A stretch of 64,000 nucleotides of DNA, from positions 109,740,001 through 109,804,000 of the forward strand of contig OX597821.1 in NCBI GenBank assembly GCA_951406725.2, given 5' to 3'. Shown here in pieces: positions 19,244-19,925 of the stretch. The notes under the pieces are model-generated. The model made no database searches and was not told the DNA's origin. It worked only from the letters and a program-made list of their open reading frames with translations. Position numbers and translations under genes: made by a program. The DNA is from Octopus vulgaris. Taxonomy: Eukaryota. The stretch's first letter is position 1, and each line of letters opens with the position of its first letter.

Positions 19244-19925
19244 AGTAGATAGACAACTGATGAAGGGTCGTTCTCTGCGTTTACTTGTTCTGTTTTCCAT
19301 TTCTTCTCGTTCTTTGCGTATTTAACTCATTTGTTTTCGTATTTCATGTTGTTTACACAGATGGTGACGTCCAGTACCCATATATGCATATGCATATGTT
19401 TATATACTTATATTATAATTTAATTGAACGCCACGCATCCATTTCCATTGATAAAAATGAGAATGAAGAAAAACGTTTTGAATCTTCCCAAGATTTGCGC
19501 CAACTTTCGTAAGTCTTTCCAGAAGAACTCCTCTCATACCAGGTCACTCATATTTTATTTCGTTCTGTTTTTGGTTACTTGGTACTCCGTGCTCTATTTA
19601 AAAGCTAAAGGCCTTTTCGTTTGTTCTCTTGTTTATTTTTTATTTCTCGTATTGTATTTTTTTGTACATGTATTTTTATCTTGTATTTTATTTTGTATTT
19701 TTATCTGTATCGTTTTTACGTCCTGTTTGTGTCACATTTTTTTTCTTTCTTTCTTTTTACCCCTCTGCGAAGTAATTTTATTTAATTCTCTCGCAGGAAG
19801 GGCTAGTTTGACGAGTCGTGTTCTGTCCTACCTTCGAAACACGCTAGAGTTGAACTAGGGACAGCTGATGAAGGGGATTTTTCCTTGTGTAGTTTGTCTT
19901 GTACTCTGTTTTTCTGTTGTAAAAA
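19241..19925 (+). mobile_element. Non-coding Penelope/retrozyme-like repeat bounded by two CUGAUGA strands 608 bp apart
   Basis: CTGATGAAGGG occurs at 19257 and 19865. The GAACGCCAC(G/A)CATCC block is shared with ~3100. Confidence 0.65.
19784..19879 (+). ncRNA. Rearranged hammerhead ribozyme, copy 3 (best-preserved accessory helices, GUU triplet)
   Basis: Reads AAUUCUCU cgcag GAAGG g CUAGUUU..CGUGUU^CUGUCC ua CCUUC GAA ACACG..GAACUAG GGACAG CUGAUGA AGGGGAUU. Stem III has 5 bp, stem I 6 bp; the other pairings are GAAGG/CCUUC, AAUUCUCU/AGGGGAUU and CUAGUUU/GAACUAG. Confidence 0.8.

Follow-up and report, generated by a model that had tools for sequence, protein, structure and literature searches.

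The window (the whole 64,000-nt stretch of Octopus vulgaris DNA that was analysed) contains, in the third of its ribozyme copies, a scrambled-order hammerhead RNA that is predicted to self-cleave and whose stem II probably takes its 5' side from an upstream strand. Its hammerhead blocks run in the order S-G-C, and its core, stem II and two additional helices, here called the clamp and the hairpin, likely meet in a four-way junction. All six helices of the fold are supported by covariation. The reading as a whole, that of an S-G-C hammerhead with an upstream stem II strand, a four-way junction at A9/10.1 and a function in cutting Naiad-type templates, is held with good confidence.

Architecture of the fold

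From 5' to 3', the elements of the ribozyme are the clamp, the hairpin, a stem II strand (the bridge), the tether, blocks S and G, the returning tether strand, a stem I strand, CUGANGA and the returning clamp strand (Table 1). The bridge is immediately preceded by the hairpin, and the hairpin by the partner of the post-A9 strand; no spacer separates clamp, hairpin and bridge, and the second clamp strand begins directly after A9. Stems I and II cross both one another and the nested layer, which gives the fold three layers. In copy 3 it spans 19760-19876, and its start lies outside the coordinates given in a preliminary description of this DNA. That description had inserted one extra helix between A9 and position 10.1 in a five-helix fold. 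Extra structure is present at this point, but it comprises two helices (clamp and hairpin), and the total is six; the hairpin at 19765-19796, between clamp and bridge, had been missed.

Four strand connections (C11.1-G12, A9-clamp, clamp-hairpin and hairpin-G10.1) would produce the four-way junction, which may stand in for the A9-G10.1 bond. Stem II would stack on the A9.G12 core and the clamp on the hairpin, while the tether probably represents the stem I-II contact known from type-SGC ribozymes. The natural hairpin ribozyme is organised by a four-way junction, and viroid hammerheads tolerate one additional nucleotide between A9 and G10.1; the hammerhead core described here accommodates two complete helices at this step.

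Table 1. Elements of the copy 3 fold, its host repeat and further copies in the window
Feature	Position	Strand	Support
Truncated copy of ~0.8-kb non-autonomous Penelope-like repeat, subfamily A3, carrying the ribozyme	19607..19925	+	homology limits against 29 other loci
Clamp 5' strand CCCCU, partner 19872-19876	19760..19764	+	pair probability 0.74-0.98; 714/810 cells paired, 6 positions per copy
Junction hairpin (19765-19770 CUGCGA/19791-19796 UCGCAG, and distal pairs)	19765..19796	+	MFE and centroid; 681/810 cells paired
Bridging strand (stem II 5' side, positions 10.1-10.5)	19797..19801	+	628/680 cells; 30/30 modal Watson-Crick pairs, 6 lineages
Tether 5' strand, stem I-II interaction helix, 10 bp with 19849-19858	19803..19812	+	
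Block S: stem III 3' strand, GUU triplet, stem I 5' strand	19817..19828	+	
Predicted cut inside block S	between 19822 and 19823	+	
Block G: stem II 3' strand CCUUC, GAAA, stem III strand	19831..19843	+	
Tether 3' strand	19849..19858	+	
Block C first half: stem I strand GGACAG and core CUGAUGA	19859..19871	+	
Clamp 3' strand AGGGG, directly after A9	19872..19876	+	
Copy 1, subfamily A1, complete six-helix fold, 10-bp hairpin stem	2551..2682	-	
Copy 2, A2, truncated leader, core U4->A	5377..5458	+	
Copy 4, B4, complete fold, 8-bp clamp	31401..31524	-	
Copy 5, B type, truncated leader, approximate limits	36760..36839	-	
Copy 6, family C, C3 at 59361, 10-11-bp clamp, core U4->C	59345..59461	-	
5'-truncated A6-type copy beginning just past block G, approximate limits	19239..19290	+	
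5'-truncated A1-type copy, approximate limits	29083..29133	+	

Covariation of the helices

Pair tables were compiled from 136 natural copies in 10 subfamilies, with pairs counted from the junction outwards. The anchors were set by eye and the subfamilies are related, so the permutation counts below are not true probabilities. The claim that the strand preceding GAAA pairs upstream with covariation is upheld, with 19797-19801 as the upstream strand: the commonest pairs of the bridge are Watson-Crick at 54 of 55 positions in 11 subfamilies, as compared with 19 of 55 for direct pairing. Its cells are paired in 628 of 680 cases over the 136 copies, and the corresponding counts are 609/675 for the tether, 656/680 for stem I and 637/680 for stem III. 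Stems I, II and III each have 54/55 modal Watson-Crick pairs, with at most four pair types per position, and the tether helix has 41/44 modal pairs. The bridge stands as claimed because its letters change in step with those of its partner (GAAGG/CCUUC, GAGCA/UGCUC, GGCUG/CAGCC, GGACA/UGUCC, GUGCC/GGCAC and GACACC/GGUGUC). In most intact copies the best partner of the bridge is found at a near-constant offset; of the 40 near-full copies in this analysis, two had no usable core and two more were mis-anchored.

When six lineages are compared, modal Watson-Crick pairs in the own combination, against the mean of permuted combinations, number 30/30 vs 15.7 for stem I, 29/30 vs 14.8 for stem III, 30/30 vs 14.3 for the bridge, 23/24 vs 13.7 for the tether, 28/30 vs 17.0 for the clamp and 31/36 vs 15.8 for the hairpin. 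Each of these own counts is matched by one or two of the 720 permutations, the identity included. With family D added, the clamp has 49/55 and the hairpin 52/66 modal Watson-Crick pairs, and neither was reached in 20,000 permutations, a result inflated by relatedness. All segments quoted in the preliminary description occur in the sequence. The linker-linker helix proposed there is real and longer than was claimed (10 bp in copy 3). GACGG/CCUUC in copy 2, which had been listed among the covarying pairs, contains a C.U mismatch and is thus a point mutation.

Support for the clamp and hairpin also comes from folding. In copies 1, 4 and 6 the two helices emerged from unconstrained folding, as did the hairpin of copy 3, and the hairpin region (19757-19802) has a folding z of -3.5. 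Among 15 matches chosen blind to the leader, six had at least 13 of 14 junction pairs, a number for which shuffled leaders give an expectation of 0.135; seven had 11-12 of 14, and two were without a fit. Some junctions are imperfect: the clamp of B2 has U.U at both of its first two positions, A.G sits at the base of the hairpin in C and B4, the hairpin of B5 pairs poorly, and in D the Watson-Crick clamp pairs beside the junction number only three. The accessory helices had been described as weak in copies 1 and 5. Copy 1 is in fact intact, and its helices seemed weak because they were read in the wrong register; in copy 5, as in copy 2, the apparent weakness reflects truncation of the 5' leader. 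A 3' splice site, with a pyrimidine tract and CAG at 19784-19796, was considered and rejected, as most other subfamilies lack the AG and the tract forms the hairpin arm.

Core and predicted cleavage

The core shows the CUGANGA, GAAA and NUH elements of a hammerhead. Conservation among the 136 copies is 128 for C3, 125 for U4, 134 for G5, 133 for A6, 130 for G8, 136 for A9, 130 for G12 and 134 for U16.1, and H17 is G in none of them. The stem I-II tertiary contact is probably supplied by the tether helix, whose three-dimensional role is suggested by passages of PMC10085705.

The 5' ends of genomic copies lend indirect support to cleavage. In a non-overlapping sample, 18 of 73 fall within -5..+19 of the predicted cut (p 2e-7, for an interval picked after a first look at the ends and with very short copies under-detected), compared with nine in the 100 nt upstream and eight in +20..+45. 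No copy ends between -15 and -4, the pile-up starts at -3, and 10 of the 18 near-cut ends adjoin a microsatellite. The pile-up fits reverse transcription of cleaved RNA, and reverse-transcriptase stalling at the knot or BLAST break points could add to it. Contigs from four runs, presumed to be of RNA, span 29 of the 30 bins; such contigs show neither ends nor strand. The ribozyme would act on read-through or tandem transcripts, both of Naiad-type Penelope-like elements and of their non-autonomous derivatives, and the cut would set the 5' end of the reverse-transcribed template.

Alternative readings

Two other registers were weighed against the junction fold. The preliminary description retained the bridge and correctly proposed a helix for the strand following CUGANGA, but gave it 19784-19791 as a partner rather than 19760-19764, leaving a single-stranded linker and no hairpin. 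An 8-bp helix of this kind with two G.U pairs, AAUUCUCU/AGGGGAUU, can be drawn in copy 3, but its pair probability is about 0, whereas that of CCCCU at 19760-19764 is 0.74-0.98. When 135 copies were cofolded, the post-A9 strand found its partner 5' of the hairpin in 126 and at the 19784-19791 site in five; four gave mixed results. The median energy in subfamily A3 is -6.0 vs -16.7 kcal/mol and the own/cross Watson-Crick values are 0.48/0.37 vs 0.84/0.51 for the clamp, so that this register appears scarcely credible. Hardly more probable is a plain type-SGC ribozyme, in which stem II would form directly between the post-CUGANGA and pre-GAAA strands and the leader helices would be regulatory or incidental. 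The SGC ribozymes in passages of PMC10085705 operate thus, and family A allows four direct pairs (G-C, G-U, G-U, G-C) after a 1-nt insertion; that a wobble-rich direct stem II can be formed in this family counts against the junction fold. However, direct pairing fills only 433/680 or 301/680 cells, with or without the 1-nt insertion, and its 19 or 10 of 55 modal Watson-Crick pairs are at the permuted level. Across the six lineages it has 10/30 modal Watson-Crick pairs, which is not above the permuted level and is reached by 546 of 720 permutations, and no helix of at least two pairs anchored at 11.1 is formed in most B and all three C copies. The direct, wobble-rich AGGGG/CCUUC pairing put forward earlier as an alternative is therefore not the conserved fold.

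It is also conceivable, if improbable, that the six-helix fold is right but cleaves little or only conditionally, serving mainly as a structural signal (for RT recognition, as a stall or as a 3'-end holder) or as a leader switch. The SGC rates in passages of PMC10085705 are slow (0.007-0.19 per min), the cut products would remain joined by four helices, and a stable knot could stall RT and so account for the pile-up of 5' ends. However, from one lineage to the next the stems vary but the catalytic residues and the NUH rule are retained, and the absence of ends from -15 to -4, with a pile-up starting only at -3, also speaks for the self-cleaving reading.

Copies in the window and the genome

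The source genome is 2.8 Gb in size and rich in microsatellites. The window holds six copies and two truncated ones, including copy 6, which was absent from the preliminary description. An S-G-C descriptor gave 15 matches in 1,264,000 sampled bases and 0, 0 and 0 in three shuffles; one of its matches (L146), which has no bridge, may be spurious. Family HMMs gave 61 matches, 40 of them near-full, and 15 HMM matches were found in 600 kb outside chromosome C8, from which a genome copy number of roughly tens of thousands can be extrapolated. A first look yielded 2063 repeat-family candidates, and the best 40 of these 2063 are 96-100% identical. Rfam returned no match at the gathering score and no hammerhead at E<=10, with only three weak snoRNA matches; this is expected given the non-circular block order.

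Several other features of the window were recorded. The minus strand at 12330-12390 carries a minimal hammerhead in circular order; its stem III is palindromic, and its stem II (GGCUG/CAGUC) resembles the bridging helix of family B and is possibly a hint of its origin. A second canonical-type hammerhead remnant lies at about 36855-36900, minus strand, directly upstream of the truncated copy 5. At 13701-15110, a ~160-nt unit that itself contains a 15-nt repeat is tandemly arrayed in about eight copies.

The host repeat

The repeat units are 780-809 nt long and contain no ORF. They show the partial tandems, inverted truncated copies and microsatellite targets of Penelope-like elements (L003, L006, L014, L019, L029, L266, L268 and L280). 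No RT or GIY-YIG match was found for the copy 3 family in the 40 of 166 flanking frames scanned, and in these flanks the family also lacks the ORF with N-terminal GIY-YIG and C-terminal RT that defines Naiads. No autonomous partner was found among C-terminal GIY-YIG elements in the 40 loci examined among 150 matches listed, and the C-terminal-endonuclease elements of this genome have ends of their own without the fold. The ribozyme copies beside GIY-YIG ORFs (L229, L242, L264, L267, L268, L280 and L191) look like separate insertions, and an intact 781-aa family was rejected as partner as its pseudo-LTR differs. The A, B and C families were presumably mobilised by Naiads.

The intact family is a young Penelope-like one (L246:2745-5087, with a 3' repeat near 6050-6110) with 781-aa RT and GIY-YIG ORFs. 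Its pseudo-LTR carries a hammerhead-like motif that reads UUGAUAA where CUGANGA would stand and that also occurs in the L266 family. At L021:2133-2681, on the minus strand, there is a fragment of a Pif1 helicase 2B domain, probably a Helitron remnant.

Naiad elements and family D

Naiads are described in passages of PMC8557442 as being without a canonical hammerhead, although some are labelled 'HHR_core' or 'HHR_half_core' and eight are flagged with half cores 35-50 nt apart. Passages of the supplement to PMC8557442 around the core motif were parsed by eye (CTGATGA, places 1-55 of 62; CTGAAGA, 5-30 of 43; CTGACGA, 5-23 of 23; CTGAGGA, 5-13 of 25), with consensus entries assigned from the following header or from their order in the file. 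The full clamp-hairpin-bridge-tether layout was seen in three near-identical Acropora entries, Naiad_Obim, Naiad_Ovul, one part-9 entry (Clytia by order), two part-12 entries (Morbakka by order) and one part-19 entry (crustacean by order). The entry preceding Naiad_Mley (Beroe by order) has the bridge, the hairpin and a 16-bp tether, the clamp lying beyond the passage. By eye, the layout thus spans cnidarian, arthropod and octopus Naiad consensus 3' ends. Six entries in parts 13-16 (nematodes by header or order) are instead of type CSG with a long tether. Among the places shown, the bivalve Naiad entries have no such 3' passage, and the fold is therefore not universal in Naiads. A part-17 entry (spider by order) has S-G-C order and long stems I and III with a different stem II arrangement.

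The consensus 3' ends of Naiad_Obim and Naiad_Ovul in these PMC8557442 passages match family D by eye, and an octopus-Naiad-type motif has 411 exact matches in the genome (0 for the control). Of 25 family D loci, 13 keep the leader and fit the fold, and 12 are without a leader. D-type 3' UTRs in L299, L314 and L172 are preceded by remnants of an RT C-terminus, 1.1-1.4 kb upstream on the same strand. In L172:70-1750, a Naiad RT end and 3' UTR are present, and the position of the D-type ribozyme holds a short insert and a C-type ribozyme, a single case that is possibly a ribozyme swap.

Comparison with known ribozymes

Type SGC (HRIMA-1 and variants) was defined on the assumption that block C is not interrupted by more than 1-2 nt (Eckert et al. 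2023, PMC10085705). The octopus ribozyme shares its S-G-C order, its short linker between stems I and II and its helix uniting the far ends of these stems. However, the stem II strand directly follows CUGANGA in type SGC (PMC10085705), whereas here it does not lie within 0-2 nt of that motif; stem II and tether strands are found at the 5' end and are docked by the clamp and hairpin. The octopus ribozyme is thus hammerhead-like and outside type SGC as defined. The fold is a circular permutation of type SGC, opened within a block that passages of PMC10085705 treat as unbreakable. Published SGC search patterns would miss the junction form, since in those passages they required an uninterrupted block C. 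Type CSG, published from two sequences only, has the same reversed cyclic block order and the same tether helix, but its block C is intact and comes first, with no junction insert (PMC10085705, in the relevant passages).

The repeats resemble Naiads in their microsatellite targets, partial tandems and inverted copies (passages of PMC8557442); they differ in that the copy 3 family has no ORF and only a putative tie to Naiad machinery. Like retrozymes, they are non-autonomous hammerhead repeats derived from Penelope-like elements, but the non-LTR retrozymes and minimal type-I hammerheads of Penelope-like elements (PMC7229834; bioRxiv 10.64898/2026.07.22.740005) use circularly ordered type-I ribozymes. 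The units described here are ~0.8 kb long with a pseudoknotted six-helix ribozyme in the order S-G-C, and so lack the type-I hammerhead of non-LTR retrozymes. Hammerhead variants with additional helices are mentioned in a passage of PMC13725137, citing three papers; no form such as the present one occurs in passages of bioRxiv 10.64898/2026.07.22.740005, PMC13725137, PMC10162972 or PMC3088659. The open-access literature yielded no description of the fold or of permuted hammerheads in Naiads, and an earlier description may exist elsewhere.

Implications

On balance we lean towards a broader interpretation, in which this is a new topology, a hammerhead core opened at A9/G10.1 and closed by a four-way junction. 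It would be the ribozyme of much of the Naiad clade across phyla, with the nematode CSG ribozymes as a sister form, and would rank among the most abundant cephalopod ribozymes; as the two cleavage products are kept together by four helices, monomers released from tandem transcripts would rejoin their ends into circles or primed templates. The junction, which imports a distant stem II strand, is a natural template for the design of split or conditional ribozymes. The fold shows where a hammerhead core can be opened, and adds a permutation beyond the six-order scheme set out in passages of PMC10085705. It also carries non-circularly permuted ribozymes from environmental RNA to animal genomes, at high copy number, and offers a testable answer to why Naiads seemed to be without the hammerhead of other Penelope-like clades.
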